Assembly: GCA_051819685.1 (NCBI GenBank) | Contig: JBNJGI010000002.1 | Coordinates: 2,638 to 66,637, forward strand | Source of the DNA: Nanobdellota archaeon | Lineage (GTDB): Archaea > Nanobdellota > Nanobdellia > Woesearchaeales > DATGWN01 | Direction of reading: 5' to 3' | Length of the DNA stretch: 64,000 nucleotides | Part shown: in pieces, positions 4,215 through 52,402 of the stretch | Position numbering within the stretch: the first letter of the stretch is position 1 | Layout: each line of letters begins with the position of its first letter | Notes under the pieces: generated by a model | Databases searched by the model: none | Told to the model about the DNA's origin: nothing | The model's input: only the letters and a program-made list of their open reading frames with translations | Made by a program: the position numbers and the translations under genes

Positions 4215-4365
4215 GGCAAATATAATAAACGAGTTATGATGTTGCCTTGAAGTAGTTTTTTAATTTGCGGTAAGGAGTAGAACGACTTACAGGAGCGCAA
4301 ATTATATCAAGTTCACCCGGAGGACCGAACATTTGTTCGCAACATCACCATTTTTATAGATGTGC
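4215..4365 (+). mobile_element. R1 repeat, short form, copy B
   Basis: ggcaaatataataaacgagttatgatgttgccttgaagtag...tttgcggtaaggagtagaacgacttacaggagcgcaaa...gttcgcaacatcaccatttttatagatgtgc. It is flanked by tggttata(t/c) at 4206-4214 and 4366-4374. Confidence 0.8.
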
Positions 4366-4374
4366 TGGTTATAC

Positions 4375-4417
4375 GGCAAATATAATAAACGAGTTATGAT
4401 GTTAACTTATGAGATGC
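4375..4417 (+). mobile_element. R1 mini-element (left TIR joined to a right-TIR remnant), immediately after copy B
   Basis: ggcaaatataataaacgagttatgatgtt is identical to the left TIR of copy B. It is followed by aacttatgagatgc, which resembles the right-TIR tail. Confidence 0.6.
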
Positions 4418-5604: not shown

Positions 5605-5768
5605 CTCGTAAAATCATTAAATCTTGATTCTTAAGATGGTTTTATTTACGGACATTTTTAAATTTTTGTGAATTAATAAAAATATGAAAAAATTTCGGGA
5701 TAGCACACTGTGCCTTTTTATCGATACATTTATAAATAGAATTAAAAAATAAATCATTGGGTTGTTAC

Positions 5769-6404
5769 ATGATTAAAAAGGTTCAATTAGCGTTTAAAAA
5801 AATTTTTGAAAAATTCTTCAAAAAACACAAGAAAGTAAAATTAGGTCTCTACGGTCCGCCCAATGGTGGTAAAACTACTCTTGCAAACAGGGTATGTAAG
5901 GATTGGTTAGGTGAAGATATAGGGTCTGTATCTGATATGCCTCATGAAACAAGAGAGATAGCTATAAAGGAATCAATAAATATAAAAAATGATGATGGAA
6001 GGGAAATAAAGTTTAATCTGGTTGATACTCCTGGAATTGCTACAAAAGTTGATTTTGAGGATTTTCTTAAATATGGTTTAAAAGAAACAGAAGCTAAAAA
6101 AAGAGCCAAAGAAGCTACTAAAGGCATTATTGATTCCATCAAATGGCTTGATGAGATGGATTGTGTAATTGTTGTGGTAGATTCAACATTAGATCCTTAT
6201 TCTCAAGTAAATGTAACTATAATTGGAAACCTTGCTGCAAGAAACATACCCGTAGTTGTCGCAGCCAATAAGAATGACCTCAAGAAATCTAATGTGAAAA
6301 AGATAGAAGCTGCATTCCCTCAATATGAAGTTGTCGGTGTTTCTGCAAAAGAAGGAACTAACATGGACACATTCTACAAAAAATTGTTTAAGGTGATTGA
6401 ATGA
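5769..6404 (+). CDS. small GTP-binding protein (archaeal GTPase of the GTPase/DUF2073/Zn-ribbon operon)
   Basis: G1 GPPNGGKT, G3 DTPG, G4 NKND and G5 SAK are present. The track start at 5757 is TTG. I prefer the ATG at 5769 because tttataaata at 5729-5738 is a TATA-like box about 31-40 nt upstream. Confidence 0.75.
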   Translation: MIKKVQLAFKKIFEKFFKKHKKVKLGLYGPPNGGKTTLANRVCKDWLGEDIGSVSDMPHETREIAIKESINIKNDDGREIKFNLVDTPGIATKVDFEDFLKYGLKETEAKKRAKEATKGIIDSIKWLDEMDCVIVVVDSTLDPYSQVNVTIIGNLAARNIPVVVAANKNDLKKSNVKKIEAAFPQYEVVGVSAKEGTNMDTFYKKLFKVIE

Positions 6405-6799
6405 GTGGGAAAAATAAAAACTCCAAATCGCTTGTATTCGAATTTATGCAATTTTCTGAACTTAAAAAAATGTCTGTGGAAGAAAGAATCAAGACAATTA
6501 TAGATATAGTTAAAAGCAATAAAATAATATTGCTAGAAGGAAGATTCAAAAAACAGGAAGAAGCGCAATTGATCCAAACAACTATGGAATATATTGATAA
6601 TAAATTCAAAGGTATTGAAATTGCTGTAATAAATCCTTCTAAAGAGGAAGGCAGTTTCTTTAGTCGTCTGAAATCAAATATTGCTAATCTAATTTTAGGT
6701 GAAAGGGAAGGGTTTACTTTGATAGGACCTGCTACAATTATAAGGGATATAAAACAAGATTCTAAGAAACTGAATCAACTTTCGATAAGACTAGGATAA
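6401..6799 (+). CDS. conserved archaeal protein, probably DUF2073 family
   Basis: ATGA start/stop overlap with the GTPase gene. Size and position between the GTPase and the Zn-ribbon protein fit the conserved archaeal triad. The family call is from memory of that synteny. Confidence 0.45.
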   Translation: MSGKNKNSKSLVFEFMQFSELKKMSVEERIKTIIDIVKSNKIILLEGRFKKQEEAQLIQTTMEYIDNKFKGIEIAVINPSKEEGSFFSRLKSNIANLILGEREGFTLIGPATIIRDIKQDSKKLNQLSIRLG

Positions 6800-6802
6800 A
6801 AA

Positions 6803-7210
6803 ATGCCACACCAATGTGTAAGATGCGGAAAACTAATAGAAGACGGATCTAATGAGATTCTTCAGGGATGTAAAAATTGTGGAGGAAAGTTATTTTTCTT
6901 TATCAAGAAATCCAAGCTTAAGGAGATGGAGAATAAACCTGCTGAAAATCTTACTACAAAGGATAAGAAGCAGATAGAGAAAGATGTTGTTGATTTAATT
7001 GGAAAAGAATATAATCCTGATGCCCCAGTTATACTTAATTTTGAAAGCGTTCGCGTGTCTAAACCAGGGAAATTTGAACTTGATCTTGTAAGTCTTTTCG
7101 ATCAGAAAAAACCTTTGGTTTATAAGCTTGAAGAAGGGAAATACATGATAGATGTTGCTACAACTTTTGAACATGCTTCAAAAGGCAGTAAAAGAATCAA
7201 AGAAAAGTGA
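6803..7210 (+). CDS. Zn-ribbon containing protein (COG3364/DUF2072-like)
   Basis: N-terminal CxxC...CxxC ribbon: MPHQCVRCGKLIEDGSNEILQGCKNCGGKLFFF. Confidence 0.55.
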   Translation: MPHQCVRCGKLIEDGSNEILQGCKNCGGKLFFFIKKSKLKEMENKPAENLTTKDKKQIEKDVVDLIGKEYNPDAPVILNFESVRVSKPGKFELDLVSLFDQKKPLVYKLEEGKYMIDVATTFEHASKGSKRIKEK

Positions 7211-7292: not shown

Positions 7293-7445
7293 GACACAAT
7301 CACAAAAATGAGTGATATTGCGAACAACTCTTCGGCCTCTGGACGAACTTTATTTAATTTACGCTCCTGTAAGTCGTTTTACTCCTTACTGCAAATTAAA
7401 AAACTACTTCAAGGCAATATCATCATTAATTTTGTTACATGTGCC
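7293..7445 (-). mobile_element. R1 repeat, short form, copy C, with perfect 8-bp flanking duplication
   Basis: gacacaatcacaaaaatgagtgatattgcgaac...cttcaaggcaatatcatcattaattttgttacatgtgcc. gatagagg occurs at 7285-7292 and again at 7446-7453, directly abutting both ends. Confidence 0.85.
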
Positions 7446-8813: not shown

Positions 8814-8988
8814 GTTGAAGGAAAGGAGGGAAGTATAAAACCCCTTTGAAAAAGTCAATTTGTAAAGGCTAATTATTTTGTCTGGGTGAAATTGATTGAA
8901 TTTGCGCTCCTGTAAGTCTTTTAACTCCTTACCACAAATTCAAATATTGCTTCAATGTAATATCATCACTCATTTTGTTATATGTGCC
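8814..8988 (-). mobile_element. R1 repeat, truncated long form, copy D
   Basis: It begins inside the long-form insert (gttgaaggaaaggagggaagtataaaacccctttgaaaaagtcaatttgtaaaggctaattattttgtctgggtgaa, compare 25200-25275). It ends with cttcaatgtaatatcatcactcattttgttatatgtgcc. The right-TIR end is missing. Confidence 0.75.
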
Positions 8989-12242: not shown

Positions 12243-13055
12243 ATGGATGCTAATATGAATGGAAAAAAGTGGAAAGGATTGTTTTTGTTTTTCCTTCTTT
12301 TTGCTCTTGTCTTTTGTATTGGAGTGGTTGAAGCTGCTGGAGAGTGTACTGGACCTGTTGAGACAAAATGGGCTGAGGTTACTTGGAGGGATGCTAATTG
12401 GGATACAGATGAATGGTATTGGTGTTCTTATGAGGAGGGTAAGTCAGGTTTAGGTAGTAGAAATAATCCAGTAACACCTACAGGAGATTGTACTGAATAC
12501 TGGAGATGGAAAATATATTCTGATGTTTTTTTCCCTATGAATGTCGGTGATATTTGTGCCACTCATACCAGCTCAGCTTTTGAGTATAATTATTGGCTTT
12601 GTTCAGAAGAAATAAATTGTCCTTCTTATTCAGAAAATGAATGTAAATCTAATGATAAATGTACTTGGGAAAGTGCGTCTACTTGTGGAGATGGAACTGT
12701 TCAATCCCCTAACGACAATGGTATAAATGAAAAGTGCGACCCTGGCACAGGCAACTTCGGCGGCACTCACTGTATAGAATCCGGAAGTGACAGATGCACT
12801 TGTCAAGAAGGGTATTCTCCTGATGGTAATGGTGGATGTGTTCAATCATTCCTAGACATTGGCCTAAAAATTCAGGATGGAGGCGAAAAAAAGGTTGCAA
12901 TTATTCCTCCGGATTCTTCTACTCAATCTCCTCTGAAAATTTATGATGATCAGGAATACAGCGTTGCCTTAGTTGATCCTTCACATTCTGATGCTTTGAG
13001 TGTAAAAATACAGACTGATGATGGTGTAAAGGCTTTGAGGGAGTATAAAAGCTAA
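12243..13055 (+). CDS. secreted cysteine-rich protein
   Basis: Signal/TM segment GLFLFFLLFALVFCIGVVEA. It has many Cys, and CGDGTVQSPNDNGINEKCDPG resembles the CGDG..E.CD cysteine-rich repeat (DUF4215-like). Confidence 0.6.
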   Translation: MDANMNGKKWKGLFLFFLLFALVFCIGVVEAAGECTGPVETKWAEVTWRDANWDTDEWYWCSYEEGKSGLGSRNNPVTPTGDCTEYWRWKIYSDVFFPMNVGDICATHTSSAFEYNYWLCSEEINCPSYSENECKSNDKCTWESASTCGDGTVQSPNDNGINEKCDPGTGNFGGTHCIESGSDRCTCQEGYSPDGNGGCVQSFLDIGLKIQDGGEKKVAIIPPDSSTQSPLKIYDDQEYSVALVDPSHSDALSVKIQTDDGVKALREYKS

Positions 13056-13089
13056 GGATTTCAATATAACTGATTAATAAGAGAATAAA

Positions 13090-13332
13090 ATGGACAAAAA
13101 AAACATAATAATAATTGTTTTGACAATATTGCTTGTTGCAACTTTGGTTTATATGCTTGGCAGCATGTACCAGGAGGCAAGGATGCAGGAGAAGATGGAA
13201 GTTTACAAGACAGGTGTACAGGATGGCTACCAGCAGACAGTAAAATGTCAGAAAGTGCCCCTTACCCTAAACAACCAAAGCATAAATATTATTGCATTAG
13301 AATGCCTGCAGCAGCGTAATACTACTTCTTAG
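13090..13332 (+). CDS. small membrane protein (80 aa), hypothetical
   Basis: ORF track, with an N-terminal TM (IIIIVLTILLVATLVYML). Confidence 0.45.
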   Translation: MDKKNIIIIVLTILLVATLVYMLGSMYQEARMQEKMEVYKTGVQDGYQQTVKCQKVPLTLNNQSINIIALECLQQRNTTS

Positions 13333-14102: not shown

Positions 14103-15311
14103 ATGATTGAAAGAGATATATTCAAAAAATTAAGTGCGGAACTTAAAAAAGATAAAATAACTGTAATAACAGGTGCAAGACAAGTTGGTAAAACAACTGC
14201 CATGAAAAACCTTTACAAAAAAACAGAAAACTCTGTATTTATTACTTTTGATGATAGTTCTATTAAATTATTATTTGAAAAAAACCCCGAATTATTTATT
14301 GAACAATACGTAAAACCTTACAAAACATTATTTATTGATGAATTTCAATATGCTAAAGATGGCGTGAAAACTTTGAAATATATTTTTGATACTGAAAAAA
14401 CAAAACTGTTTGTTTCTGGTTCTTCAAAACCTGAAATTGCTATTCAATCTTTACAATATTTGGTAGGTCGAGTTTCACTTATTGAGATGTTTCCCTTATC
14501 ATTTTCTGAATTTGTAAATTATAAATCCCCTGAAAAAAATATTCTTCTTAAAAAACCTAGAAAAATTAATGACCTTCAACAATTAAATTCAGAGTTTGAA
14601 GAGTTTCTTATGTTTGGAGGATATCCCGATGTTGTGAAAGAAGTAAATTTTGAAGATAAAAAGAAAATCTTGAAAGATTTAGTAAATATATATCTTTTAA
14701 AGGAAATTAAGGATGTTTTAGGATACAAAAATTCTTATACTTTTGAAAAATTGTTAAAAACAATTGCTATAAATAATGGTAAATTAACAAAATATTCTTT
14801 CCTAGCAAACGATTTAGATATTTCGTGGAATAATGTACAAGAAAAAGTTTCTATACTTAATAAAACAGATGTATTATATGTAGTAAAACCCTTTTTTAAT
14901 AACAAAAATAAAGAAATTATGAAAACACCAAAAATATATTTGCATGATATAGGATTTTTGAATATTCTTCTAAATAATTTTTCAAGATTTGATGAAAGAG
15001 TTGATAAAGGAGAGTTACTTGAATCTTTTATTTTACATGAACTTATTAAAAAAAAATATGATGTAAAATTTTGGAATAGGCAATCTTCTGAAGTAGATTT
15101 TATACTTGAAAAGGATAATGATATTATAGCAATAGAATGTAAATCTAATGAGAAAAAAATACCGAAGTCTTTAAAATATTTTTTAAAAGAATATAATTTC
15201 TTAAAAGCTTATATTTTTAATTTGGTTACTGATAAACATTTAGAAGAATTAAATAAATCTTTTCAGTTTACACACTATATTAATATAGAAAGCATCAATT
15301 TTTTTGAATAG
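14103..15311 (+). CDS. AAA+ ATPase, DUF4143-containing family
   Basis: Walker A GARQVGKTT, Walker B LFIDEFQ, the FGGYP motif, and a C-terminal restriction-endonuclease-like EVDFILE...AIECK. Confidence 0.8.
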   Translation: MIERDIFKKLSAELKKDKITVITGARQVGKTTAMKNLYKKTENSVFITFDDSSIKLLFEKNPELFIEQYVKPYKTLFIDEFQYAKDGVKTLKYIFDTEKTKLFVSGSSKPEIAIQSLQYLVGRVSLIEMFPLSFSEFVNYKSPEKNILLKKPRKINDLQQLNSEFEEFLMFGGYPDVVKEVNFEDKKKILKDLVNIYLLKEIKDVLGYKNSYTFEKLLKTIAINNGKLTKYSFLANDLDISWNNVQEKVSILNKTDVLYVVKPFFNNKNKEIMKTPKIYLHDIGFLNILLNNFSRFDERVDKGELLESFILHELIKKKYDVKFWNRQSSEVDFILEKDNDIIAIECKSNEKKIPKSLKYFLKEYNFLKAYIFNLVTDKHLEELNKSFQFTHYINIESINFFE

Positions 15312-15876: not shown

Positions 15877-15926
15877 GCAAATCCAAACATCACTTCAAGG
15901 CAATATCATTATTAATTCAACACAAT
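15877..15926 (-). repeat. R1 fragment (left-TIR end only)
   Basis: gcaaatccaaacatcacttcaaggcaatatcattattaattcaacacaat matches the last ~50 nt of copy C (gcaaattaaaaaactacttcaaggcaatatcatcattaatttt...). Confidence 0.6.
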
Positions 15927-23140: not shown

Positions 23141-23212
23141 GCATAAGATTATTATATTTTTATATTGCCTTGCAGAAAACCCAAAAATTTGGCTAGACTA
23201 ATTCTATCAAAT
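23141..23212 (+). repeat. R2 repeat module, copy b
   Basis: gcataagattattatatttttatattgccttgcagaaaacccaaaaatttggctagactaattctatcaaat aligns with 55361-55433. Confidence 0.8.
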
Positions 23213-23220
23213 TTAGCAAT

Positions 23221-23285
23221 AGTTAAACTATTAGCGTTTAATTATTATGCGCAATATAAATAAATTTTATTTATGTCGGCGACTA
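23221..23285 (+). repeat. R3 repeat module, copy a
   Basis: agttaaactattagcgtttaattattatgcgcaatataaataaattttatttatgtcggcgacta aligns with 48638-48703, 49104-49169 and the reverse complement of 52306-52371. Confidence 0.8.
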
Positions 23286-23289
23286 ATAT

Positions 23290-24100: not shown

Positions 24101-24970
24101 TCAATTCTTTTCAGAAATATTCAATTCTTTTTTTATTCTTTGAAGTGCATTCTCTTTTCTTGTTTCATAATTCTTGAAATCTATCTCTTCATCAATATTT
24201 TCAAAACTTTCAAGTATCTTCTCTATCTTAGGAATTGTTTTCTTCAATATATTTTTTGAATTATTGAATTTTTTCTTAAATTTTTTTCTCTTTATTATCT
24301 TGAACATATCTGCTAGTCTTTCAATAGAATTGAGTATATTGAATACAAGAAGTTCATGATCAAGTATATTGAATGTCTTTTTATCGAGAATCCCGTCATC
24401 TTCCTTGTGAGTAAGCTCATTAATATCCTTAATAAGTTTCTCGAATTGGATCAGATTAAGGTTTATTTCCTGGATTTTTTTCTGAGAAACCTTGCCTTCC
24501 TGTATTTCAAGAATCTCCTGGCTTACCTTCTGCATGAATAAAGCCAAAGAAAGTCTAAGCCTATTCACATTATCTCTTAAAGCTATATCGTAAACTTCAT
24601 TAAGAATAACATTTTGTTTAATAGAGACAAGCCTTGAAGTAACAATAGCTAAAAGCATAAAACCAAGAACAACTTCTATTATTACAATTGGTTTAAAATT
24701 ACCTACAGGAACTATATCTCCAAATCCTGTTGTTGTCGCTGCAATAAAACTGAAATATATTGAGTCAGAAACTTTGGTTATGATACTCCCATTAGAATTC
24801 ATAAGATAGGATGTGTCAGTTATAAAAATGTTATATGAAAGACCGAACAATAATATGATCAAAGCCCAAAGTAAAAATATCCTTGGAAATGTCAGTTTAT
24901 CTATCCATTTCATCAATTTTTTTGAATAGAATTGTTCTGTAAAATGTTTTGGTTTCTTCATACCAAACAT
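24101..24970 (-). CDS. two-TM potassium channel with long cytoplasmic coiled-coil C-terminus
   Basis: Selectivity filter ATTTGFGD between two TM helices. Confidence 0.75.
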   Translation of the reverse strand: MFGMKKPKHFTEQFYSKKLMKWIDKLTFPRIFLLWALIILLFGLSYNIFITDTSYLMNSNGSIITKVSDSIYFSFIAATTTGFGDIVPVGNFKPIVIIEVVLGFMLLAIVTSRLVSIKQNVILNEVYDIALRDNVNRLRLSLALFMQKVSQEILEIQEGKVSQKKIQEINLNLIQFEKLIKDINELTHKEDDGILDKKTFNILDHELLVFNILNSIERLADMFKIIKRKKFKKKFNNSKNILKKTIPKIEKILESFENIDEEIDFKNYETRKENALQRIKKELNISEKN

Positions 24971-25058: not shown

Positions 25059-25375
25059 GGTACATCCATAAAAATGAATGATGTTGCGAACTATAGTTCA
25101 GTAAACTGTTCCGGCACGCTGTCAAGGAAAACCTTTCGGCGGTTTCAACAAGTAGAAACTTTTAGTGCGGTATAGTCACTTTGTTCCTGGCCTTAAACAA
25201 GTTTAAGGAAAGTAGAAGGGTATAAAACCCCCTGAACAAGTCAATTTGTAAAGGCAAATTATTTTGTCCGGGTGAAATTGATTGAATTTGCGCTCCTGTA
25301 GACCGTTTCACTCCTCACCGCAAGTTAAAAAAACACTTCAAGACAATATTATCATTTAATCTTATTCTATGAGCC
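25059..25375 (-). mobile_element. R1 repeat, long form (~317 nt), copy H
   Basis: The ends are as in short copies (ggtacatccataaaaatgaatgatgttgcgaac ... cttcaagacaatattatcatttaat...gagcc). About 190 nt of GC-richer sequence (25093-25266) replaces the ~14-nt aaatgttcggtcct segment of the short copies. Confidence 0.85.
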
Positions 25376-25411: not shown

Positions 25412-25771
25412 CTAAAAGTTGCAATTCTTGCAAAAAGTTCCTTTACATTCTTTATTATTAAACTTATATTCAATACCCCATTTTTTTATATCTTGTATTA
25501 TTTTAATCAACTTTTTTCCTGAATCAGTAAGAGAATAATATGTATTAATTGGTATCTTCGAACTATCGATTTCTTTTTTTAATATTTCTTCATATTCAAG
25601 TTCTTTTAATCTTTTAGATAAAATTTTAGAAGTGATACTGTGAAGATCTTTTTTAATTGAATTAAATTGTTTTTTATTATTTTTGTTTTTATATATACTT
25701 AAAATTATTAGAAGACTCCATTTTTTTCCTATAATATCTAATGTCCTGTAAATTGTACATTTTTCATTCAT
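25412..25771 (-). CDS. HxlR-family winged-helix transcriptional regulator
   Basis: CTIYRTLDIIGKKWSLLIILSI...ITSKILSKRLKELE...YSLT is the canonical HxlR pattern. Confidence 0.8.
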   Translation of the reverse strand: MNEKCTIYRTLDIIGKKWSLLIILSIYKNKNNKKQFNSIKKDLHSITSKILSKRLKELEYEEILKKEIDSSKIPINTYYSLTDSGKKLIKIIQDIKKWGIEYKFNNKECKGTFCKNCNF

Positions 25772-37413: not shown

Positions 37414-40400
37414 TTAATGTTTCCTGTATTTCTTAAGAAGATGGTATATTGTTGTCAAAGGCCATCCAAGATCTATAAGGTGTTCTTTAATTTGTTTAAG
37501 TGTATATCCATCTCTGATCCATTTCTTAACTTGTATATTGATTTTTATCATGGCTGTATAATAATTCAGGTTGGAATATATTTTTTCATTATCATATCCA
37601 TTTATTAAAAGCTCTTCTTCAATTTCTTTTTCAGTCTTATTTTTGACTTTAAGATTATGTATCAATTTAAGCATATTTTCATCAATCTTTTCCATATTTA
37701 TGGCTTTTTTGTATTCTTTAGATATATTATCTATCTTACCTTTAACTTCATTTTCTTTCCAGCCAGTTTCAATTAATGCAGCCAGTATTTTTTCCTTACT
37801 TACTCCTTTTTTGAATTGTCTCTTAATATATTGTTCAAGTTTATTTTCAAGTGTTTTTTCATCTAAATACTGATTTTGTTCTGTTTTTTTATCACTTCCA
37901 TACATCTCTTTACTTTTTTTCTTAGTTTTAACTACAACTACTGAACTTGTAACCAATAATAATGCCAAAATAATTCCTATTATTATATATATCATATTTC
38001 CTATAGATTCAAATATACCTTTCTCTTCTTTCTCATCTTCAGGAGAAGGATAATCTGTTTCAGGATTATTATTATCCCATTCTACATCATCATCTTTTCC
38101 ATCCTCATCAGTTGTATCTTCTTCCTTATCATCTTTTACAGGATAATCATCTTTTTCAATCTCCTTTTTCCCTATAGCCCAATATGAAAATCCAGGAATT
38201 GAAACTTCATAAACATAATTATTTTTATTCTCGCTTATAAATTCCAGATTGTATTCTTTCCATGCATTATTTTCCCATCTATAAATTACAGCATTATCTT
38301 TATTTATCCCTTTGTCATTATTTTTATCTATTTCTATTTTCATACCTGCTTCACTTATTTTTGAATCTTCTATATTATTTGTTTTTATTTCAAATAATTC
38401 ATAAGCATCTATAAAATCAACATCTTCAGGCACCGATAAAATAGGTTTTAGTTCAATTTTCGCATAATCTAAATTTTCATTATAAGTGAAATCCAATTTA
38501 TTCACTGAAGTTTTTTCATTATTAATCTCAAAATCATTTGAAGTTCCACTTTCTATCTCATATAATCTTTTTACTGAACTTGTGGATACAGGTGCATAAC
38601 TTCCTCCGGAACTTCCTCCAGAACTTCCTCCGGAAGTTCCTCCGCCACCTTCATCTGTTTCTTCCTTATCAGTTATACATTTCTCATTGAAACCTATAAA
38701 TAATGAATTCTTATCATAATTCAGATCATTACAGCTTAAATTTGTGTTTTTTAATGTTATATTATGGTTTGAGCTATTCCCTCTTATATCTTCAACACTG
38801 ATATTAAGGTAGTAATCACCAATATCAGCTTCAATCATTGTTCCGAATATTATTCCTTTATCGGGTTTCATTCTTAAGTATCCGTCATTTCCATCAATTT
38901 CATCTTTATTTTCAAGGGAATAATTAAAACTATCAAGATCTGGGTCGTAGAAGTATTCCCTTAGATTTATTTCAGAATCGGTGATGATACTTTTATTCCA
39001 GAAAATGGTCGGTAATTTTGTTTTATTTTCTGGTTTTCTATTATCGATAATTATTGTCTTAAGACTGCTTGTCACATTATTATCTGCATAATCTGCAACA
39101 GTAACATTAAAGTCAAAAGAAAGACTGCTATTTAGTCTTGATTGGTTTGTATTCAAAGTTAATATAAAACTACTATCATCTTTACTTGACATAATTTTAT
39201 TTTCGAAATCACCTGTCTCATTTGATTTCAATATAGCTTTTTTAATACCATATGTATCATCAGCCATTATTTCAACAGTGATATTTTCATCATTATAATA
39301 TTTACCTTCTCCATTGATTTGATTAATTTTAGGATTTCCATTATCTTTGACTAAATCTATTTTTTTATTTTCTATCTGTCCTGAAATTCCGGATGCTGTT
39401 ATATTTAAAGTATATTGTCTTTCATTCATGCTTGTCATATCAATTCTTTTTTCTATAGTATCTGCAATTGTATCTGTAATAGTACTTTGTGTTTGTTTCG
39501 CTATTTCTCCAGAAACTTCATTTATAATATTGTATTCTATTTTGTTAGCATTATATACTTTTACTTTAAAAGGCATGCTTTCATTAAAATATATATCTTC
39601 ATTATAATAGTTATCTGAGTCTATTACCATCAAAAGACTGTTATCATCATAATAATTTAAATTATTGCTCATTATTGAATATCTTTCATCCACTTTAGTT
39701 ATAGCTTCAACTTCTGCATTCAATGTAAAATCTGAATCAAAGCTATCATTAAGCAATACTGTTATGTTAGGTTTATCTGATATGTATTCTTTTTTCTCAT
39801 TACCATTTTTAATTATAGTTATGTTATAATGGTCTATCAATTCTTTAAGATTCGGTTCATCCCATGTGATATTTAATTCATTACTTCTTAATCTTGTATT
39901 ATTTCCTGTAACATTATCAGATAATCTGACATTACTGAATACAGGTTCATATTTTTTATAATCAATGCATCTTGTCGTATATATAGGTGAATATACCATC
40001 CATTTTGACACTGTCTGGAATTCCAGGTAATAACATTTATCATCTGAAGGATTATCAATACTTATATTAGCGGAAGATCCATTATCGATAAAATCTTCTT
40101 TAATAATATTTGCCACTCCTTTTTGATTATCATTTTCATAGAGCTTGAAATAGGTTTTATCCATTTTCTCTTCATTGTTTTCAAATTCCCATGAAATGTT
40201 TACAAGATTCCCTCTAATATAATCATTTCTTCCGAGATAACCATCAAAAAAATCATAATCGCTCAATCTAATATCATCTGAATCATATATAAATTTCTTA
40301 TTTTCATTTCCAGAATTACCTGCTTTATCATGAATACTTACATTCACTTTATAATCATTGCTTTGGAAGTTATCATCCATATTATAATTAATAGATATGC

Positions 40401-43400
40401 TGTTGATATTTTTACTCACACTAAATTCATTTATAAGGTCTTCTTTATCATCTAAAACGAACGTATCGTTAGTCTTGTTATAATAAATAACGCTTCTATT
40501 AATATTTGCTGTAGATATTTTACCGAAAGTTATGTTTATATTTTTATCATAATCAATAAGATAGTTATCATCTATTTCTATTTTCATAGAACTTAGCTTG
40601 TGGATGATACTTTCGTTTTCTATAGTATTATTTATTTTTATTGAAGGTTCTTTCATATCATTCACAACAGAATCTGTTAATTTTAATTCTCCACCATCAT
40701 CCGAAAGGAATTTAATTATATTGGTTGCATTTTCTTTTATACTCATATTGAACTCAAATCTTCCAGTGATGTAAGAATGATCATAAAGATTTATGATATC
40801 ACCTTTTTCAGCCCTATCTTCCAAAGTATCATTCAATTCTATAATTAGATAATCAGGATTTGAATCAGTTATATTTTTATTATATTCATAATATTTCAGA
40901 TTATCTCTTATCTTACTTTTTCCGAGACCTATATATTTTGATTCTCCTTCTTTAAGAGAAAAATTATCCTTATTATAACCTCTGTCATCTTTTATAATAT
41001 AAATAGTTTTATCTCCTTCTTCAGCATCTTTAGCAAGTTCAGCGCTATGCACAACAGTATTATTATAAAATAATGATTTATTTTTTGTTACATTAGGATA
41101 GCTATCATAAATTGTTTCATTGTAGGCATATGCTGTAATGTTGGTATTATTAGTTTCCAATAATCCTGTTACTTTAATCTTGTTTTTATTTGTAAAGCTC
41201 GGTAATGGATTTACAGAAATTTCATAAGTTGTTTCTATAGTTCTATTAGAACCGGAAGTATTAAAACTGCTTCTAAGGCCTCTATTATCTTCTACCCTTA
41301 CTGAACATCTGACATCGCCTTTTTGTTCAGTAGAAAATTCTTTATAATCCTTACCATCACCTTCTTTTACTGTCTGGTAACCATAACCTTCGTCAAACTC
41401 CCATATATAATGGGTTGCACTTTTATTTTCCTGATCATTATTCCATCCACTATCAGGAACTTCATTACTATTATAATCATAATCACAGACAAACTCTGCT
41501 ATACCACTAGAAGTTTCTCTTGAAATTGTTACATTTTCAGCAGAAGGTATTGCATTTATCTTATAATCAATTATGGAGGAGTTTGAACATTGTTCTTTAT
41601 CACATACAAAGAAATATAATGTATCATTACCATTTTCTTCCATACTTATTTTACTTGAAAGTTCTATCGGATTTTCTATTGTATATGTATCTGTATAATC
41701 TATTGTCTTATCAAGACACCCTGTAACTGATACATCAGAAGAATTACAGATATACCCTGCAACCCTGTCACTATTTGAATCACTCCATCCAATATCAAAA
41801 TTATATGTTTTATTTTCATCAGTAAGGTTTAATCCATTGAATTCAGGAATATCTTCAGTAACTTCTGTAATAAAAGGTTTGTTTTCAATAAGGGGTTCTT
41901 CAGTATTTTCTCTAATGGCAATCCTGCTGGAGTTTGTTATTTGTTTCTTTGGAGCATCAGTGAATTCAATCTGGCAGTACCAATAATCTCCTTCTTCAGT
42001 TCTTATATTAGAAATTGTTTCTACATTTCTATATTGTTCTTCAAAACTATTAACTCCTATATTTTTATACCATATTATACTTATATTTGTTCCTACAATA
42101 TCGTCCCAATCTGAATTATTATAAATATTACCGCTCTGATTAAAAGTGAAATCACATTTAAGATTATCATCAGGCGATGATATATTATTATCGAATATTT
42201 TATTATCCGAAGAATTTACAATATTAATTCCTATATTCTCTCTTTCAACAGCTAATGTATAGTTTTCTTGTGAATTTTTATTAGCTTCAAGGTGTCCTGT
42301 CTCATCCATCACAAAAACTGTATAATTCTTATTTCCAGGACTCTCTTCAGGTATTGTCATAGAAATGCTTTTTGAATTTATACCCCTGCTCCCGAATACA
42401 TTTTCATTCCTATAGAGTTCACCATAAATACATCCGCTGTTCCTAATAATAGAGTTTGCTTCACTTGAGTTACCTTCACAAATATATATCCTATAATTAG
42501 TGGAATCTATATCATACCATTCTATATCTACATCAATCTGACTTCCGGAATATATTTTTTTATCCACATGGTCTTGTACATCTATAATAGCAGGCCTGTT
42601 CCCATCATCTTGTTCGTAGTCACTACTTACAATCTCTACAACCTCTGATGTATTTTTTTCACCCTCTAAGAATTCATCTATCGGAGTTACAGAGCATTTC
42701 CATTTATCTCCTGCTTCAGTAATACCATAAGGAAGTTCTTCCATATTTTCTTCAGCGCAAATACCTGATTCATAACAATTAGTCCATGTTTCAGAATTTT
42801 TGTTCTGTAAATACCAATCTATTGAATAATTGTTTCCACTAATATTCCAACGATTATCTTCATCTGTTATACTGAAATTGCATTTAAGGGTTTGGTTATC
42901 TTTCGCAATCCCCTCACTCTCGATATAATTATCAGGAGTTTTATTTAATTTATATAAAGTTACATTTTCAGCTTTTGGAGCATGATTCATATAATAATTT
43001 CCTTTTTTCGCTAAAGAGGTATCTTCACCATCTGATACAAAAACTGAATAAGATTGATTTAATTTGTCTGAAGGTTTGACCTCATAATCACACATAATTT
43101 CCGGTTGAGTTTCGCCTATGTTACTCACAGCAGTGCACATCAGATTGTCGCCACAACCCTCTCCCTCAGGATCATATCCTTCAGATACATAAAGGTTATC
43201 TGAACTGAAATTAAGTCTTCCTGTATTGTCATGTCCTGTTGTATTTGAAATTGTAAATATTTCTTCCCCTGAAGTTTTATTATAACTTGAATTATATTTC
43301 AAGGTAAAATAATTATTTCCGCTACCTTCAATATTACAAGTGGAATCATCAGTATCATTATTGATACATATCTTTATCGCGAAATCTTTTCCATCTTCAA

Positions 43401-46107
43401 CAACAGCATTATCAGTTACAAATCTTCTTGTCCTGTTCTTGACAAGAATGTTATTCTCATCTTTCATAATTAAAGTTGCATTACTTTTTGGGATTTTCCC
43501 ATATTCGTCTGTTTCATACACATATATATCAAAAATGGGTTCAGATATATTGGTTGAAGTTCCATTGGATATATCTGTGGCTTTCAACCATATTTCCCCT
43601 AGAGGCAGACCGTTATTTTCATGGAATAACCATAATGCGTTACTATTTGCATCAGAAGAATCTCCTATTTTTATTTCTTCATTTGATCCTTTTTTCTCTT
43701 TATTAGAGTAATCTTTACAAAAAGCGAAAGCAAGCTGTCCGTTTCCTAAGTCTGAATCATATGCTTCAGCATATAATTTAAGCACATCACCTTGATTTAC
43801 AGGCGAGTTGATATTAGCAGTATTATTTGTGTATCTGATAATTGGTACAAGATTCTCATCATATGTCTTTATTGTAGAGTTTTTCCAAGAACTATTCATT
43901 TCTTCATCCGATACCTTTACTGAACAGATAACTTCATCTCTGTCATCATATATAGGATATTCTAAAGTATTGCTATTCTCACTTTTTATCTTATAAAACT
44001 CTCCTATCCCTTCATTTTTAATAAACCATTTGAAATAACTGTCGGTTTGCTCATCATTATCTACATCATCAAAAGTATAATTACACAATAAATATTTTTT
44101 ATCCTCATTTGATTTATTAATTATTTGGATATTAGTTGGTTGAGGTTTTGCATTTGGAGTTGTTTTTTTGAAATTTTCAATAACTTTGAAATTTTCATTA
44201 TTCTGAAATGCAGTGAATTCAACACTAAAGTTTTTATCTTCTTCTAATATTATACTTCCATCATTGAAATTATAGGAACATTCATGTAGATTTTTATCGA
44301 AATCATATTCATTACAGTCAATCCTGTTTGTAATATAAGGTGTTTCTTTATAAACTCCGCTAGCGTTGAAAAATATGCTTTCACTTGAATCATTAATCTT
44401 GAAATTAAGTATAACATCATTATTACTTCTATTCATAGTTATATTAGGGTCGCCATAAATTCTTGGATATAAATCTCCTTCAGCTGAAACAGTTTGTGAA
44501 GAATCACTCGGGTAAGTATAACTTTCTTCATTTTTGTAATTAACTGTGAGTTCGTAGCTATATATTTGTCCTTCTTCTATGCTTTTATTATCAATGTAAT
44601 ATCCTTTTGAAAGGTTTTCTCCCGAGCTTATCGTAGTAAGATCATCAAACCCAGATCCCTTGTCTCTATCTATACTAATATTATTAACATCTAAATAATT
44701 TAATGTCCATTCTATTATAATTGAGGCATTATCGTAATGTTCAGCATTTACTGAATCAAAATTACCCTTATAGAAGTTTTTATCTCCTATTGTTTTATTA
44801 TTAGACGAATCAATCCATCCTGATTCATTTGTTCCATCACTCACATTTACTGAACATCTGATATCCATATCATCAAAAGAACCGTTCCTGTATATATTAT
44901 CTTCTAATTGTTGTTCTTTTTCTCCAGAAATATCATTCCAGCTTCCATCATAATATTGCCATCTAAAGTCTGGATATCCTCCTGAATCATCCTCACTATC
45001 TCCATCAATATCACTAAAACTGTAAGAACATTCAAGAAATTCATCAGAATATTCATCAATTTCTAATTTAACTTCTACATCAGCACTTGGAGGGGTGTTT
45101 TGAACATTTTTGGTACTTGTTAAAGTTGTAAATTTATTTGTATCGCTATCTTTGATTGTTCCTTCAAATAAAATGTCTTCATCTGCCTGTATGTCATTTA
45201 AATATTTAGTAACATTACAATAATGAGTTGTTGAATTATGTCTTTGACAATTAGCTTGATCTGTATATTCAGTTCCATTATAAGTGTAATTATAATATAA
45301 AGTTAAGGTATCTGCAGAATTCTTATCTTCAACTGAAACATCCCATTTAACTTCGTTTTCTGTTTTATCCATTGATATTGTTCCTTCGGCATTAGTAGGT
45401 CCGTAATTTATCTTCACATTTTTAGTAGTAGTATATTCTTCTCCGCATGTATAAATGATAGTTACATTATATTCTAATAGATTACCATCTTCAGTCCTAT
45501 AAACTTTATCTTCATACGAATCTTCGCCGACTGAATTAATATCAATATCATGTTGTCCTGATTTATTTTCAATACGGATTTTATCCAGATTTTCTTCGTA
45601 TACATCTTCACTATTAACTTTGTAATTAGCAGGATCCCAAGTTATGTTGATTGTTCCATTTCCTTTTTCTTCAAGAGATACAGAATCTAATTCATAAAAA
45701 TATTCTTCAAGAGTTGTAATTGGATCAAAAGTATATGATGCATAATCTGTAGAATTGCTTGCATTTATTTTAACTTTTATAAGTTGGTCTCTTTTTGATT
45801 CAAAATTATATTCTGTTTCAGTTATTTCTGTTCCGACAGTTCTCCAATCTATATTATCCCACTTTTTTAAAGTACCATCATCAGTTTGATTTTTTACATG
45901 AATTGTATAATTCGCATTAGTTATATCGGAAGCATCCCATTCAAGCTTTAGGATAAAATTGTTAATGCTATAATTATGAACAGTGTCTATAAGATTTGTC
46001 GGTTCGTTTGCTGCTATTGAATTAATTGAAAAAATTGAAAATAATATAAGAATCAATGCTAAAACAAAAACAAGCTTCACTCTTCCATTTTTATTTAATA
46101 ATCTCAT
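37414..46107 (-). CDS. giant (2897 aa) type I membrane surface protein, probably heavily N-glycosylated adhesin/S-layer-like
   Basis: Signal peptide MRLLNKNGRVKLVFVLALILILFSIFSINSIAA, with a very dense set of N-x-S/T sequons. At least 5 Cys-pair modules are present (LECSYSFSDIDGD...IRCSVNVSDG; LLCNYTFDDVDND...VICSVKVSDE; LKCNFSITDEDN...WKCSVTPID; LKCDFTFNQSG...WYCQIEFTD; FVCDYDYNSNE...VRCSVRVEDN). These are followed by a (GGS)n linker, a PGF-pre-PGF-like domain (...VSIPGFSYWAIG), an acidic stalk, a TM (IYIIIGIILALLLVTSSVVVV), and a ~190-aa basic cytoplasmic tail. Confidence 0.85.
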   Translation of the reverse strand: MRLLNKNGRVKLVFVLALILILFSIFSINSIAANEPTNLIDTVHNYSINNFILKLEWDASDITNANYTIHVKNQTDDGTLKKWDNIDWRTVGTEITETEYNFESKRDQLIKVKINASNSTDYASYTFDPITTLEEYFYELDSVSLEEKGNGTINITWDPANYKVNSEDVYEENLDKIRIENKSGQHDIDINSVGEDSYEDKVYRTEDGNLLEYNVTIIYTCGEEYTTTKNVKINYGPTNAEGTISMDKTENEVKWDVSVEDKNSADTLTLYYNYTYNGTEYTDQANCQRHNSTTHYCNVTKYLNDIQADEDILFEGTIKDSDTNKFTTLTSTKNVQNTPPSADVEVKLEIDEYSDEFLECSYSFSDIDGDSEDDSGGYPDFRWQYYDGSWNDISGEKEQQLEDNIYRNGSFDDMDIRCSVNVSDGTNESGWIDSSNNKTIGDKNFYKGNFDSVNAEHYDNASIIIEWTLNYLDVNNISIDRDKGSGFDDLTTISSGENLSKGYYIDNKSIEEGQIYSYELTVNYKNEESYTYPSDSSQTVSAEGDLYPRIYGDPNITMNRSNNDVILNFKINDSSESIFFNASGVYKETPYITNRIDCNEYDFDKNLHECSYNFNDGSIILEEDKNFSVEFTAFQNNENFKVIENFKKTTPNAKPQPTNIQIINKSNEDKKYLLCNYTFDDVDNDEQTDSYFKWFIKNEGIGEFYKIKSENSNTLEYPIYDDRDEVICSVKVSDEEMNSSWKNSTIKTYDENLVPIIRYTNNTANINSPVNQGDVLKLYAEAYDSDLGNGQLAFAFCKDYSNKEKKGSNEEIKIGDSSDANSNALWLFHENNGLPLGEIWLKATDISNGTSTNISEPIFDIYVYETDEYGKIPKSNATLIMKDENNILVKNRTRRFVTDNAVVEDGKDFAIKICINNDTDDSTCNIEGSGNNYFTLKYNSSYNKTSGEEIFTISNTTGHDNTGRLNFSSDNLYVSEGYDPEGEGCGDNLMCTAVSNIGETQPEIMCDYEVKPSDKLNQSYSVFVSDGEDTSLAKKGNYYMNHAPKAENVTLYKLNKTPDNYIESEGIAKDNQTLKCNFSITDEDNRWNISGNNYSIDWYLQNKNSETWTNCYESGICAEENMEELPYGITEAGDKWKCSVTPIDEFLEGEKNTSEVVEIVSSDYEQDDGNRPAIIDVQDHVDKKIYSGSQIDVDIEWYDIDSTNYRIYICEGNSSEANSIIRNSGCIYGELYRNENVFGSRGINSKSISMTIPEESPGNKNYTVFVMDETGHLEANKNSQENYTLAVERENIGINIVNSSDNKIFDNNISSPDDNLKCDFTFNQSGNIYNNSDWDDIVGTNISIIWYKNIGVNSFEEQYRNVETISNIRTEEGDYWYCQIEFTDAPKKQITNSSRIAIRENTEEPLIENKPFITEVTEDIPEFNGLNLTDENKTYNFDIGWSDSNSDRVAGYICNSSDVSVTGCLDKTIDYTDTYTIENPIELSSKISMEENGNDTLYFFVCDKEQCSNSSIIDYKINAIPSAENVTISRETSSGIAEFVCDYDYNSNEVPDSGWNNDQENKSATHYIWEFDEGYGYQTVKEGDGKDYKEFSTEQKGDVRCSVRVEDNRGLRSSFNTSGSNRTIETTYEISVNPLPSFTNKNKIKVTGLLETNNTNITAYAYNETIYDSYPNVTKNKSLFYNNTVVHSAELAKDAEEGDKTIYIIKDDRGYNKDNFSLKEGESKYIGLGKSKIRDNLKYYEYNKNITDSNPDYLIIELNDTLEDRAEKGDIINLYDHSYITGRFEFNMSIKENATNIIKFLSDDGGELKLTDSVVNDMKEPSIKINNTIENESIIHKLSSMKIEIDDNYLIDYDKNINITFGKISTANINRSVIYYNKTNDTFVLDDKEDLINEFSVSKNINSISINYNMDDNFQSNDYKVNVSIHDKAGNSGNENKKFIYDSDDIRLSDYDFFDGYLGRNDYIRGNLVNISWEFENNEEKMDKTYFKLYENDNQKGVANIIKEDFIDNGSSANISIDNPSDDKCYYLEFQTVSKWMVYSPIYTTRCIDYKKYEPVFSNVRLSDNVTGNNTRLRSNELNITWDEPNLKELIDHYNITIIKNGNEKKEYISDKPNITVLLNDSFDSDFTLNAEVEAITKVDERYSIMSNNLNYYDDNSLLMVIDSDNYYNEDIYFNESMPFKVKVYNANKIEYNIINEVSGEIAKQTQSTITDTIADTIEKRIDMTSMNERQYTLNITASGISGQIENKKIDLVKDNGNPKINQINGEGKYYNDENITVEIMADDTYGIKKAILKSNETGDFENKIMSSKDDSSFILTLNTNQSRLNSSLSFDFNVTVADYADNNVTSSLKTIIIDNRKPENKTKLPTIFWNKSIITDSEINLREYFYDPDLDSFNYSLENKDEIDGNDGYLRMKPDKGIIFGTMIEADIGDYYLNISVEDIRGNSSNHNITLKNTNLSCNDLNYDKNSLFIGFNEKCITDKEETDEGGGGTSGGSSGGSSGGSYAPVSTSSVKRLYEIESGTSNDFEINNEKTSVNKLDFTYNENLDYAKIELKPILSVPEDVDFIDAYELFEIKTNNIEDSKISEAGMKIEIDKNNDKGINKDNAVIYRWENNAWKEYNLEFISENKNNYVYEVSIPGFSYWAIGKKEIEKDDYPVKDDKEEDTTDEDGKDDDVEWDNNNPETDYPSPEDEKEEKGIFESIGNMIYIIIGIILALLLVTSSVVVVKTKKKSKEMYGSDKKTEQNQYLDEKTLENKLEQYIKRQFKKGVSKEKILAALIETGWKENEVKGKIDNISKEYKKAINMEKIDENMLKLIHNLKVKNKTEKEIEEELLINGYDNEKIYSNLNYYTAMIKINIQVKKWIRDGYTLKQIKEHLIDLGWPLTTIYHLLKKYRKH
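38599..38646 (-). repeat. 4 x 12-nt tandem repeat encoding the Gly/Ser linker of the giant protein
   Basis: acttcctccgga / acttcctccaga / acttcctccgga / agttcctccgcc on the + strand, encoding GGGGTSGGSSGGSSGGS. Confidence 0.9.
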
Positions 46108-48637: not shown

Positions 48638-48703
48638 AGTTAAACCATTAGTGTTTAATTATCCTGCGCCATATAAAATATACTTTATTTATTTCGTCTA
48701 CTA
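48638..48703 (+). repeat. R3 repeat module, copy b (left member of the 66-bp direct repeat pair)
   Basis: agttaaaccattagtgtttaattatcctgcgccatataaaatatactttatttatttcgtctacta differs at one position from 49104-49169. Confidence 0.9.
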
Positions 48704-49103: not shown

Positions 49104-49169
49104 AGTTAAACTATTAGTGTTTAATTATCCTGCGCCATATAAAATATACTTTATTTATTTCGTCTACTA
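49104..49169 (+). repeat. R3 repeat module, copy c (right member of the 66-bp direct repeat pair)
   Basis: agttaaactattagtgtttaattatcctgcgccatataaaatatactttatttatttcgtctacta. Confidence 0.9.
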
Positions 49170-49266: not shown

Positions 49267-50289
49267 ATGGATGATATAAATAATCTTGAAAAAATTGAAA
49301 AATATAAGAATTTATTTATTTTATCTAATAAGCTTGATAGGACATCCCGTCTTAAGAAAAGTTTTTTCTCTAAACTTAAAAACGCATTCAATGAAGAAAG
49401 CGCTGATAAAGTAAGAGTTTACATAAATGCTATAAAAAGATCTTCGAAAGTTACAGAAAACATGCTAAAGAAATTCAAGAATTCTCTTAAAGAAACAAAA
49501 ATAAATGAAAGCATTCCGAAAAAAGACAATTATGAAAATCTACTGATAACTCAGGGTTATCTTGAAAAATCATATACAGACAAAGAAAATAAAACTTATG
49601 AGTTGCTTAAAGATTATCTTAATAGGATTAATGAAACCATTGATGAGCTAATCACCTCGAAAAATGAAAAAGATAGTTTTGTAGACAGAATAATATCCTT
49701 GAGCCAGGAAGAATATAAAATAACTTCGAAACTTGAAGATAACGAGTCGATAGAATTACACATAGAAGAATTAGGTGAAATTGAAAAATTATTGGATGCT
49801 GACATAAAATATTCAGATAATGCTACTAAAATTATTAATTCTTTCATAAATGAGACAGAATACTTTATCAAAAAAATGCGAAAAATTAATCAGAATATGT
49901 TGCAGAATATAAACGATCTTTCAGTCAAGATTCAGCAGAATATACTCAATAAATCTTCAAAATTAACAGGAATGCCTTTTAACATAGCTTTTTCAGCAGG
50001 AAAAATTCTTGAAAAAAGAGCTTCTATTTTCGCTTTGACAGTTTCAGTATTAGGTGTGTCTTTATGTTTCATGGATCCTGAAACGGCAGATTTCGCCAAA
50101 ACTGTAAGTGAAACTTTTCATTTTACAGCAACAGGAGGGGAAATGCTTCAATCTTTGCCTGCATTAGTTGGAATATCGAAATTAATAAAAGACCATGATT
50201 TTTTAGGGAAAATAAAGAATAAAGTTTCTTATAAAATAATACCTGCTTCAAAAAAGAACATGGATTTGATACAGGGATTTTATTCTTGA
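49267..50289 (+). CDS. hypothetical coiled-coil protein with C-terminal hydrophobic segments
   Basis: ORF track. A Lys/Glu/Asn-rich helical N-terminal part precedes the hydrophobic stretch IFALTVSVLGVSLCFM. Confidence 0.5.
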   Translation: MDDINNLEKIEKYKNLFILSNKLDRTSRLKKSFFSKLKNAFNEESADKVRVYINAIKRSSKVTENMLKKFKNSLKETKINESIPKKDNYENLLITQGYLEKSYTDKENKTYELLKDYLNRINETIDELITSKNEKDSFVDRIISLSQEEYKITSKLEDNESIELHIEELGEIEKLLDADIKYSDNATKIINSFINETEYFIKKMRKINQNMLQNINDLSVKIQQNILNKSSKLTGMPFNIAFSAGKILEKRASIFALTVSVLGVSLCFMDPETADFAKTVSETFHFTATGGEMLQSLPALVGISKLIKDHDFLGKIKNKVSYKIIPASKKNMDLIQGFYS

Positions 50290-50298: not shown

Positions 50299-50608
50299 GC
50301 ATGTGTATTTAAAAGAATGAGAATATTGTATTAAGTATTTATTGAATTTGCAGTAAGAATTGAAACGACTTACAGGAGAGCAAATTCAACCAAGTTCACC
50401 CGGACAAAATAATTTGCCTTTACAAATTGACTTGTTCGGGGGTTTTATACCCTCCTACTCTCCTTAAACTTGTTTAAGGCCAGGAAAAAAGTGACTATGC
50501 CGTGCTAAAAGTTTCTACTTGTTGAAACCGCCGAAAGGTTTTCCTTGACAGCGTGCCGGAACAGTTTACTGAATTTTTGTTCGCAATATCACTAATTTTA
50601 TGAATTTG
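50299..50608 (+). mobile_element. R1 repeat, long form (~310 nt), copy I
   Basis: It is the reverse complement of copy H over its whole length. The 40-nt tccggcacgctgtcaaggaaaacctttcggcggtttcaac is identical in both. Ends are gcatgtgtatttaaaagaatgagaatattg ... tcgcaatatcactaattttatgaatttg. Confidence 0.85.
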
Positions 50609-50647
50609 TTTTTTCTACACACTTCAAAACTGAATTAATTTATTTTA

Positions 50648-51901: not shown

Positions 51902-52270
51902 TCAATCTTCATTTCTATAATCATCTACTGCTTTCTTTAAGGCATTCTGGGCAAGAATGCTACAATGAACTTTTACTGAAGGGACATCACCACCCATAGA
52001 TTTAACTACATCATCCTTACTTACATTCAAAGCTTCATCTATTTTTTTTCCTTTGCATAAATCACAAAGAGCATCAGTAGAAGCTATAGCTGCTACACAC
52101 CCATAAGTTTTAAATTTTATATCTTCCAATATTCCATCTTTAACTTTGATAGAAATTTTCATGATATCTCCGCATTTAGGATTTCCATACTTTCCAACTC
52201 CATCTGGATTTTCTATTTCTCCTGCATTTACAGGATTCTGAAATCTTTTTATTATTTTATCATTATACAT
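51902..52270 (-). CDS. iscU: Fe-S cluster assembly scaffold IscU/NifU-like
   Basis: NPKCGDIM, KTYGCVAAIAS and HCSILAQNAL place the three conserved Cys in IscU context. Confidence 0.85.
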   Translation of the reverse strand: MYNDKIIKRFQNPVNAGEIENPDGVGKYGNPKCGDIMKISIKVKDGILEDIKFKTYGCVAAIASTDALCDLCKGKKIDEALNVSKDDVVKSMGGDVPSVKVHCSILAQNALKKAVDDYRNED

Positions 52271-52305
52271 TTTTTTACCTCCTTATTATAAAAATAAATT
52301 ATATT

Positions 52306-52371
52306 TAGTCAACGACATAAATAAAAAGCATTTTATATTGCGCAGAAAAATTAAACACTAATGGTTCAACT
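52306..52371 (-). repeat. R3 repeat module, copy d, between nifS and iscU
   Basis: The reverse complement agttgaaccattagtgtttaatttttctgcgcaatataaaatgctttttatttatgtcgttgacta aligns with the other R3 copies. Confidence 0.8.
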
Positions 52372-52402
52372 ATTGCGGAATATAATTACTAAATATTATT
52401 CG

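Follow-up and report, generated by a model that had tools for sequence, protein, structure and literature searches.

Long and short variants of MITEs (miniature inverted-repeat transposable elements), as well as small RNAs (sRNAs) borne by MITEs, are known in bacteria. The Correia/NEMIS elements of Neisseria exist in forms of about 155 bp and about 105 bp, and ERIC/IRU elements occur with internal insertions. The bridge RNA of the insertion sequence (IS) IS621 and the seekRNA of IS1111, reportedly described in 2024 by Durrant et al. and by Siddiquee et al., respectively, are associated with insertion into repeated palindromes. The sRNA gene ssr9 of Pseudomonas putida KT2440, with A' and B' boxes resembling IS ends on its two sides, is registered as MITEPpu9 and forms minicircles; it is inserted in trans by the transposase of the IS110-family element ISPpu9 at a fixed position of repetitive extragenic palindromic (REP) sequences, and the palindrome of the ISPpu9 A-box resembles the palindrome at the target (PMC12288879). 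Here, a stretch of 64,000 nt from a Nanobdellota archaeon (contig JBNJGI010000002.1; the whole stretch is referred to as the window) was analyzed, in which a MITE named R1 occurs in an ordinary short form and in a long form with an internal module of 169 or 170 nt. The two intact long copies are named H and I, and a truncated long copy is named D (Table 1).

Cargo and carrier were found to differ in evolutionary rate. The modules of H and I are identical at 163 of 170 positions (95.9%), with six substitutions and one indel, whereas the R1 arms of the same two copies agree at 109 of 150 positions (72.7%; Fisher p = 3.5e-9 for the contrast between module and arms). The identity between H and I falls sharply past TTCACCCGGA on the left and past TTTACTGAA on the right. 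Compared with the short-form consensus, the arms show 80.6% identity in I and 84.5% in H, values within the range of ordinary short copies (80–93%). In their arms, H and I resemble each other no more than any pair of R1 copies does. The arms are star-like, H and I do not cluster in the arm tree, and their arm identity is the value expected of two independent descendants of the consensus. The module evolves about 6–7 times more slowly than its R1 carrier. Since the module is conserved at 95.9% and the arms at 72.7%, and since both H and I have decayed inverted ends and target duplications, the module was shown to be an evolutionary unit separate from the carrier. According to the original prediction, made from the sequence of the window, either the short form is an internal-deletion derivative of the long form or the long form carries a nested passenger. 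This was the right frame, and since the module is a slow unit of its own, a passenger is favored over a mere undeleted remnant.

All seven differences between the H and I modules are located at module positions 34–100 (clustering p of about 0.02–0.04), and the first 33 nt, together with 10 nt of the junction, and the last 69 nt are identical. The 40-nt block predicted to be identical in both copies was recovered; the identical run in which it lies is actually 69 nt long. In the truncated copy D, the module part shows five differences in its first 50 nt and little likeness beyond, and 4 of the 16 pairs of helix 1 are broken. The decay of the D module is about equal to that of the D arm. A functional passenger, most likely a structured RNA, that is held by purifying selection is the reading tentatively favored here. 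It explains the rate contrast, the odd junctions shared by H and I, the position of the conserved block at the outer helices, the retained G+C content and the decay of D.

The G+C content of the module is 0.39–0.41, or 0.41–0.43 when the CACCCGGA junction is included, as compared to a window mean of 0.29, in agreement with the prediction of an insert that is GC-richer than its background. Under an assumed mutation bias towards AT, neutral decay would erode such a value in a genome with a G+C content of 0.29. The best 150-nt stretch of the module ranks in the top 0.3–0.7% of all 150-nt windows by G+C content, and the remaining windows among the 15 highest G+C peaks fall inside listed coordinates of open reading frames (ORFs), as judged by eye. 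The G+C-richest stretch of the window (12243-13332, plus strand; up to 49% per 150 nt) encodes a secreted, Cys-rich protein of 270 aa without a Pfam match, and this region is without a match in Rfam.

The rate contrast could also arise without selection on the module. In a neutral long/short MITE polymorphism with concerted evolution, the module would be a functionless remnant of the parent element or an old insertion homogenised by gene conversion, with the arms drifting or being overwritten by divergent short copies. MITE families such as Correia and ERIC commonly comprise long and short variants, set apart by an internal block. Copies H and I lie 25 kb apart on the same replicon as inverted repeats, and no sign of structure-preserving substitution was found in the module, as this explanation would have it. 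However, the R1 copies are generally not homogenised, their pairwise identity being 70–88%, so that conversion seems rare; conversion tracts would have to stop at most 10–13 nt from both module borders, and conversion with short copies as donors would tend to remove the module. The high G+C content kept in an AT-rich genome also argues against a long neutral residence. Concerted evolution is, therefore, regarded as quite unlikely.

The carrier R1 is a non-coding element of about 153 nt without ORFs, of which at least 10 full or partial copies were detected in the window by repeat finding, BLAST and alignment. Its terminal inverted repeats of about 33 bp, visible in the short copies, read GGCACATA...GATATTGC / GCAATATC...TGTGCC and can also be written as GGCACATA...ATATTGC / GCAATAT...TGTGCC. 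The interior contains a conserved hairpin, GAATTTGCG-GTAAG...CTTAC-...-CGCAAATTC, and a central palindrome, CGAACA-TT-TGTTCG. Perfect 8-bp target duplications (CCTCTATC, TATTGCTT, TAAAATTA, TGGTTATA and CGGATATA) flank five of the seven short R1 copies in the window. Because of its inverted ends of about 33 bp and its 8-bp target duplications, R1 is a MITE of the cut-and-paste (DDE) type.

Searches of public collections and of relatives showed that the R1 family is narrowly distributed. An exact R1 core pattern matched a single contig among species-representative genomes, namely JBNJGP010000132.1 (5013 nt; referred to as L001), and gave no match in the metagenomes of the Joint Genome Institute (JGI) or in IMG/VR. 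This contig holds two short R1 copies, the first with a perfect 8-bp target duplication, and one copy of a second dispersed repeat family, R2. R1 and the module are both missing from relatives with a 63–67% identical tRNA-guanine transglycosylase (TGT; loci L002-L006, L008 and L009). L001 was binned in a 'Candidatus Muiribacteriota' metagenome-assembled genome. Its R1 and R2 copies are up to 91% identical to copies of the window and its proteins have DPANN / Woesearchaeota homologues; L001 is probably a misbinned DPANN contig. One of its proteins, of 487 aa, is recorded on two NCBI contigs of 5013 and 11844 nt (MGM0609069.1 and MGM5484148.1), and L001 may share a source population with the window. 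R2 copies are 83–98% identical to each other and often lie beside R1 copies (Table 1).

Alignment confirmed the predicted positions of H and I and the short-form ends of both copies. Copy I fills the gap between an orphan gene and a convergent gene for a DUF4143 ATPase (50681-51784). Its left inverted end is strongly decayed (AGCATGTGTATTT... vs the consensus GGCACATA...), and its candidate target duplication, TAGCAACA / TTTCTACA, matches at five of eight positions. Copy H ends 89 nt upstream of a K+-channel gene (24101-24970), and its candidate target duplication, ATTTTTAT / ATTTTCAA, likewise matches at five of eight positions. The inverted ends are decayed in H and more strongly in I. H and I are old, immobile R1 copies of a 'long' subfamily. 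Copy D retains, as predicted, part of the insert; it breaks off within the module, 24 nt from the stop codon of the HisRS gene.

Beside copy I, two further observations were made. The orphan gene upstream of it encodes a protein of 340 aa without a Pfam domain, whose sole match among 5.8 billion protein clusters is the protein itself. The convergent ATPase gene (minus strand) has a counterpart at 14103-15311 (plus strand), both with AAA_14 and DUF4143 domains.

Table 1. Coordinates of the long R1 copies, their parts and further repeats (window positions unless stated otherwise).
Feature	Position	Strand	Remarks
Long R1 copy I, whole	50299-50608	+	begins 10 nt past the stop of the co-oriented orphan gene 49267-50289
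I, R1 left arm	50299-50404	+	ends ...GTTCACCCGGA
I, module, 169 nt	50405-50573	+	CAAAATAATTTGCC...GCCGGAACAGTTTACTGAA; 41% G+C, no ORF, five local hairpins
I, R1 right arm / inverted end	50579-50611	+	GTTCGCAATATCACT...
Long R1 copy H, whole	25059-25375	-	begins 37 nt past the stop of the co-oriented HxlR-type regulator gene 25412-25771
H, R1 left arm	25267-25375	-	
H, module, 170 nt	25097-25266	-	
H, R1 right arm / inverted end	25059-25091	-	
Copy D	8814-8988	-	R1 left arm at 8988-8881, followed at 8880-8814 by ~66 nt from the start of the module
40-nt block	25110-25149; twin 50521-50560	+; twin -	exactly two occurrences; chance expectation none
R1 fragment	15877-15917		found by repeat finding/BLAST, extra to the 10 copies
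R2 copies	23142-23286, 48638-48703, 49104-49169, 52302-52386, 55363-55433; L001 28-150		

The junctions of the module differ from those of a simple insertion. In the long copies, about 11–14 nt at the central dyad of R1, between ...GTTCACCCGGA and GAAYWTWGTTCGC..., are replaced by the segment of 169 nt (I) or 170 nt (H), which is unseen in short copies; hence, the replacement of about 14 nt in the original prediction was borne out, and the insert length of about 190 nt was not. Short copies read CCCGGA-GGAAC-GAACATTTGTTCGC, and long copies read CCCGGA-(CAAAAT...GCGTGCC)-GGAAC-(AGTTTACT)-GAAYWTWGTTCGC. Removal of the segment from the long copies does not regenerate the short consensus, as the GGAGGAACGAACA of the short form is not restored. 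The long form differs from the short one by a replacement or by a change in two blocks rather than by a clean insertion. The junctions of H and I are identical down to the extra AGTTTACT, which is complementary to AGTGACT within the module. CCGGA is present on both sides of the module, and otherwise the borders share only GTTC..GAAC and CCGG. An empty-site variant, with the center CCCGGAACAGTTTACTGAA, is absent from all nine short R1 copies examined.

These junctions bear on an alternative in which the module would be a mobile element nested in R1, site-specific and non-autonomous, that was repeatedly inserted at the same point of the R1 central palindrome by a recombinase encoded elsewhere. 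The enzyme could be IS110/IS1111-like, similar to the one that moves ssr9 (MITEPpu9), or a Y1 transposase of the IS200/IS605 type that targets single-stranded hairpin loops; in H and I, the insertion would be young and the R1 copy around it old. With a recent module in old, star-like arms, 96% vs 73% identity would result without selection. The CCGGA that brackets the module would fit such an element, and its first hairpin (CGGACAA...TTGTTCGG; arms CGGACA/TGTTCG) mimics the R1 palindrome. Perfectly kept ends around a variable middle would be expected for cis-acting transposon ends, and the module was never found outside R1 in the window or in the fetched loci. However, a replacement in which GGAGGAACGAACA is not restored differs from a clean split of the R1 center, the extra AGTTTACT should not be common to insertions that arose independently in ordinary R1 copies, and none of the nine short copies presents the empty site. 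Beyond GTTC/CCGG, the module is without inverted ends of its own, and, judging from D, the long form dates from about the time of the R1 burst. No transposase, recombinase, TnpA or TnpB was found among the approximately 50 ORFs of the window that were scanned, and the IS110 recombinase domains PF01548 and PF02371 were also absent from them. A nested element of this kind is considered unlikely.

On either strand, the folding energy of the module is moderately more favorable than that of dinucleotide shuffles (z of -1.4 to -2.9). In the sense given by I (plus strand), RNAalifold predicted a long 5' hairpin, P1, with the strands CCCGGACAA/UUGUUCGGG, a pair of small hairpins, and a 3' domain in which the helix AGUGACU/AGUUUACU encloses two hairpins. 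Three of the differences between H and I fall in consensus stems of the sense strand, and all three still pair through G.U. The four hairpins read by eye in the original prediction were present and were recovered by folding. A long-range pairing that had been rejected there is kept on the opposite strand by G.U (CCGUGC or CCGCAC with GUG(C)CGG) and accounts for one of these three differences; it carries no statistical weight.

With respect to transcription, H and I are both co-oriented with the gene upstream and start 10–37 nt past its stop (n = 2, not significant). An archaeal promoter of the module itself, with TATA box and transcription factor B recognition element (BRE), was searched for by eye in comparison with the TATA boxes of about 30 genes of the window, and only a weak TATAAAAC was found, in antisense orientation and in a hairpin loop. 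The promoter and terminator scan was of the bacterial type and, thus, uninformative for an archaeon. Since a co-oriented gene ends 10–37 nt upstream and no convincing own promoter is present, read-through on the sense strand from the upstream gene is proposed as the simplest route to the predicted RNA.

Under purifying selection, the history of the module may be pictured as follows. First, the module would have entered one R1 master copy, once; a single entry is inferred because H and I have the same unusual junctions, the extra AGTTTACT included. Second, it would have spread together with R1 by transposition. Third, purifying selection would since have held the module in the intact copies H and I, while the truncated copy D would decay freely. 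The product would be a predicted folded RNA of about 170–185 nt, probably made in H and I by read-through from the upstream co-oriented gene, and the conserved block would extend from the 5' strand of P1 (CCCGGACAA/UUGUUCGGG) to just past the 3' strand of the helix AGUGACU/AGUUUACU, which closes the 3' domain.

A number of observations weigh against selection on a structured RNA. Two intact module copies (H and I) were compared. No compensatory double change was seen, and the shuffles match the observed values. When the substitutions of H were threaded on the minimum free energy fold of I, and in reverse, they preserved the fold no better than random changes (sense strand, p of 0.36 and 0.43; antisense strand, p of 0.17 and 0.85). 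The fold is, as it stands, without statistical support, and with two intact copies there is no power either way; the statement of the original prediction that no global fold is supported holds. Stems are possible on both strands, and a role at the DNA level, or no role, is, thus, possible. The whole window gave no Rfam match at gathering scores, with only noise at E<=10, so that the insert was not assigned to any RNA family. No public sequencing runs are listed for the window, L001 or the module. An exact pattern of the right block of the module gave 0 matches in species-representative genomes and 0 in JGI metagenomes; viral contigs of IMG/VR gave 0 matches for a left-block pattern and 0 for a further right-block pattern; and blastn of the module against phages and plasmids returned nothing meaningful. 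Finally, there is no evident reason for a small genome to maintain multiple copies of one small RNA, each under selection.

A related, somewhat doubtful possibility is that the module is a functional structured nucleic acid which uses R1 as a vehicle or landing pad, either as a small RNA retained by the host or as an archaeal counterpart of ssr9/MITEPpu9, i.e., a selfish RNA-gene cassette that an unseen recombinase would insert exactly at the central palindrome of another mobile element. Taken together, the module is probably either functional, in which case it is probably a folded RNA, or self-spreading, and the accessible data do not tell which.

The original prediction had further suggested that the module could be a guide or bridge-type RNA belonging to the autonomous, unseen partner of R1. 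Such a guide, bridge, seek or omega RNA would agree with a length of about 170–185 nt, near that of the IS621 bridge RNA (about 177 nt), and with a module that is non-coding, structured and conserved. However, long inverted ends and 8-bp duplications indicate cut-and-paste transposition of the DDE type, for which no guide is required, and most R1 copies are without the module yet have perfect target duplications. No match or complement of at least 8 nt to the flanking target or to its own ends was found, the best of 6–7 nt being at chance level. The small hairpins of the module do not resemble two large programmable internal loops, Rfam offers no match, and no partner gene is encoded nearby among the ORFs of the window. 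This suggestion was, therefore, not sustained and is regarded as highly improbable.

An origin of the module from a decayed gene, or from a piece of some other repeat family, is hardly credible. The G+C content of the module is nearer to coding DNA than to spacers. However, stop codons interrupt all six frames in both H and I, and no frame is common to the two copies. Similarity between the module and R1 was absent, the alignment score being below the shuffled mean. A profile hidden Markov model and a covariance model built from H and I detected H, I and D as their sole matches in the window and were without a match in L001-L009; the window and the fetched loci contained neither a further copy or piece nor a solo module outside R1. 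Decay would also leave the 96% identity of H and I unexplained. Given the closed frames, the lack of another copy and the lack of likeness to R1, such an origin was excluded as far as testable. Among known RNA classes, ARAGORN detected no tRNA, and a C/D-box or H/ACA sRNA was rejected, since no conserved boxes were seen in H and I (checked by eye only).

The window has a G+C content of 29% and carries archaeal genes for TFB, an ATP-dependent DNA ligase, TGT, class II aminoacyl-tRNA synthetases and OapB/OapC. The host is a tiny symbiotic archaeon of the DPANN group (Nanobdellota/Woesearchaeota-like). The list of TGT (Pfam TGT) homologues agrees with this, the nearest being Woesearchaeota/Nanoarchaeota proteins.

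Further features of the window were noted. At 5757-7210 (plus strand), a gene for a GTPase of 215 aa with an MMR_HSR1 domain is followed by those for OapB (PF09846) and OapC (PF09845), which form an operon of origin-associated proteins. A replication origin may occupy the spacers near this operon, which also carry R1 copies (4215-4417 and 7293-7445). A giant ORF of 2897 aa (37414-46107, minus strand) has zero Pfam matches. The region 51902-55140 (minus strand) encodes NifU (51902-52270), followed by paralogous class-V aminotransferase / cysteine desulfurase genes (52403-53560 and 53983-55140). These paralogues share a 300-nt block of 74% identity, and one R2 and one R1 copy are located around the region.

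As a rule, MITEs are regarded as uniform junk. In the present case, the rates of cargo and carrier clearly differ within 320 nt. Such a rate contrast is a simple quantitative sign of function or of independent mobility. To our knowledge, a cargo that is far better conserved than the MITE carrying it has not been described in any archaeon, DPANN included, and almost nothing is known to us of the non-coding RNA repertoire of DPANN archaea. If the cargo is an RNA, it would represent a new RNA family in DPANN archaea and an example of a transposon that distributes an RNA gene. If it is a site-specific element nested in another, a genome of about 1 Mb would display layered parasitism, which would point to an undiscovered recombinase. 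A second-order parasite or passenger system of this type, if true, would not yet have been described in archaea. If the cargo is neither an RNA nor a nested element, the locus would represent an ordinary long/short MITE polymorphism.

Compared with known systems, the module shares with the IS110/IS621 bridge RNA and the IS1111 seekRNA that it is a non-coding unit of about 170–180 nt at repeated palindromes. It differs from these RNAs by the lack of an adjacent DEDD/serine recombinase and of guide complementarity and by a different predicted architecture. Like palindrome-associated transposable elements (PATEs) derived from IS200/IS605 and like the omega RNAs of TnpB, the module appears to lack inverted ends and a real target duplication and has subterminal hairpins, and, as in PATEs, the same pentanucleotide, CCGGA, is found left of the module and at its right end. 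Unlike in PATEs and omega RNAs, there is no TnpA or TnpB in the window and no match in Rfam, the two end hairpins are dissimilar, and the center of R1 is replaced.

As in Correia/NEMIS and ERIC/IRU elements, two size classes result from an internal block at a fixed position, and the elements form hairpins and lie in intergenic regions near gene ends. In those elements, the extra block diverges together with the element, whereas the module is about 6–7 times better conserved than its carrier, doubles the length of the element and resides in an archaeal host. For archaeal MITEs, we know of no conserved passenger module, and none is described in the literature found. R1 itself resembles archaeal MITEs such as SM1-SM4 of Sulfolobus and those of haloarchaea (census in PMC11602168) with respect to its inverted ends, 8-bp duplications, length of about 150 nt, non-coding nature, multiple copies and restriction to a lineage.

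MITEPpu9 is bacterial, its target is a REP sequence and not a MITE, and its enzyme, minicircles and RNA were demonstrated experimentally, whereas an enzyme, minicircles and an RNA of the module would be putative. In addition, the junction of the module replaces about 11–14 nt, in contrast to a clean AG-to-AG recombination. Like MITEPpu9, however, the module is a short, non-coding unit of sRNA size that occupies a constant position within a dispersed palindromic repeat. The two also have in common a short identical flanking oligonucleotide, a palindrome at the 5' end that resembles that of the target, and several copies located away from a transposase gene.

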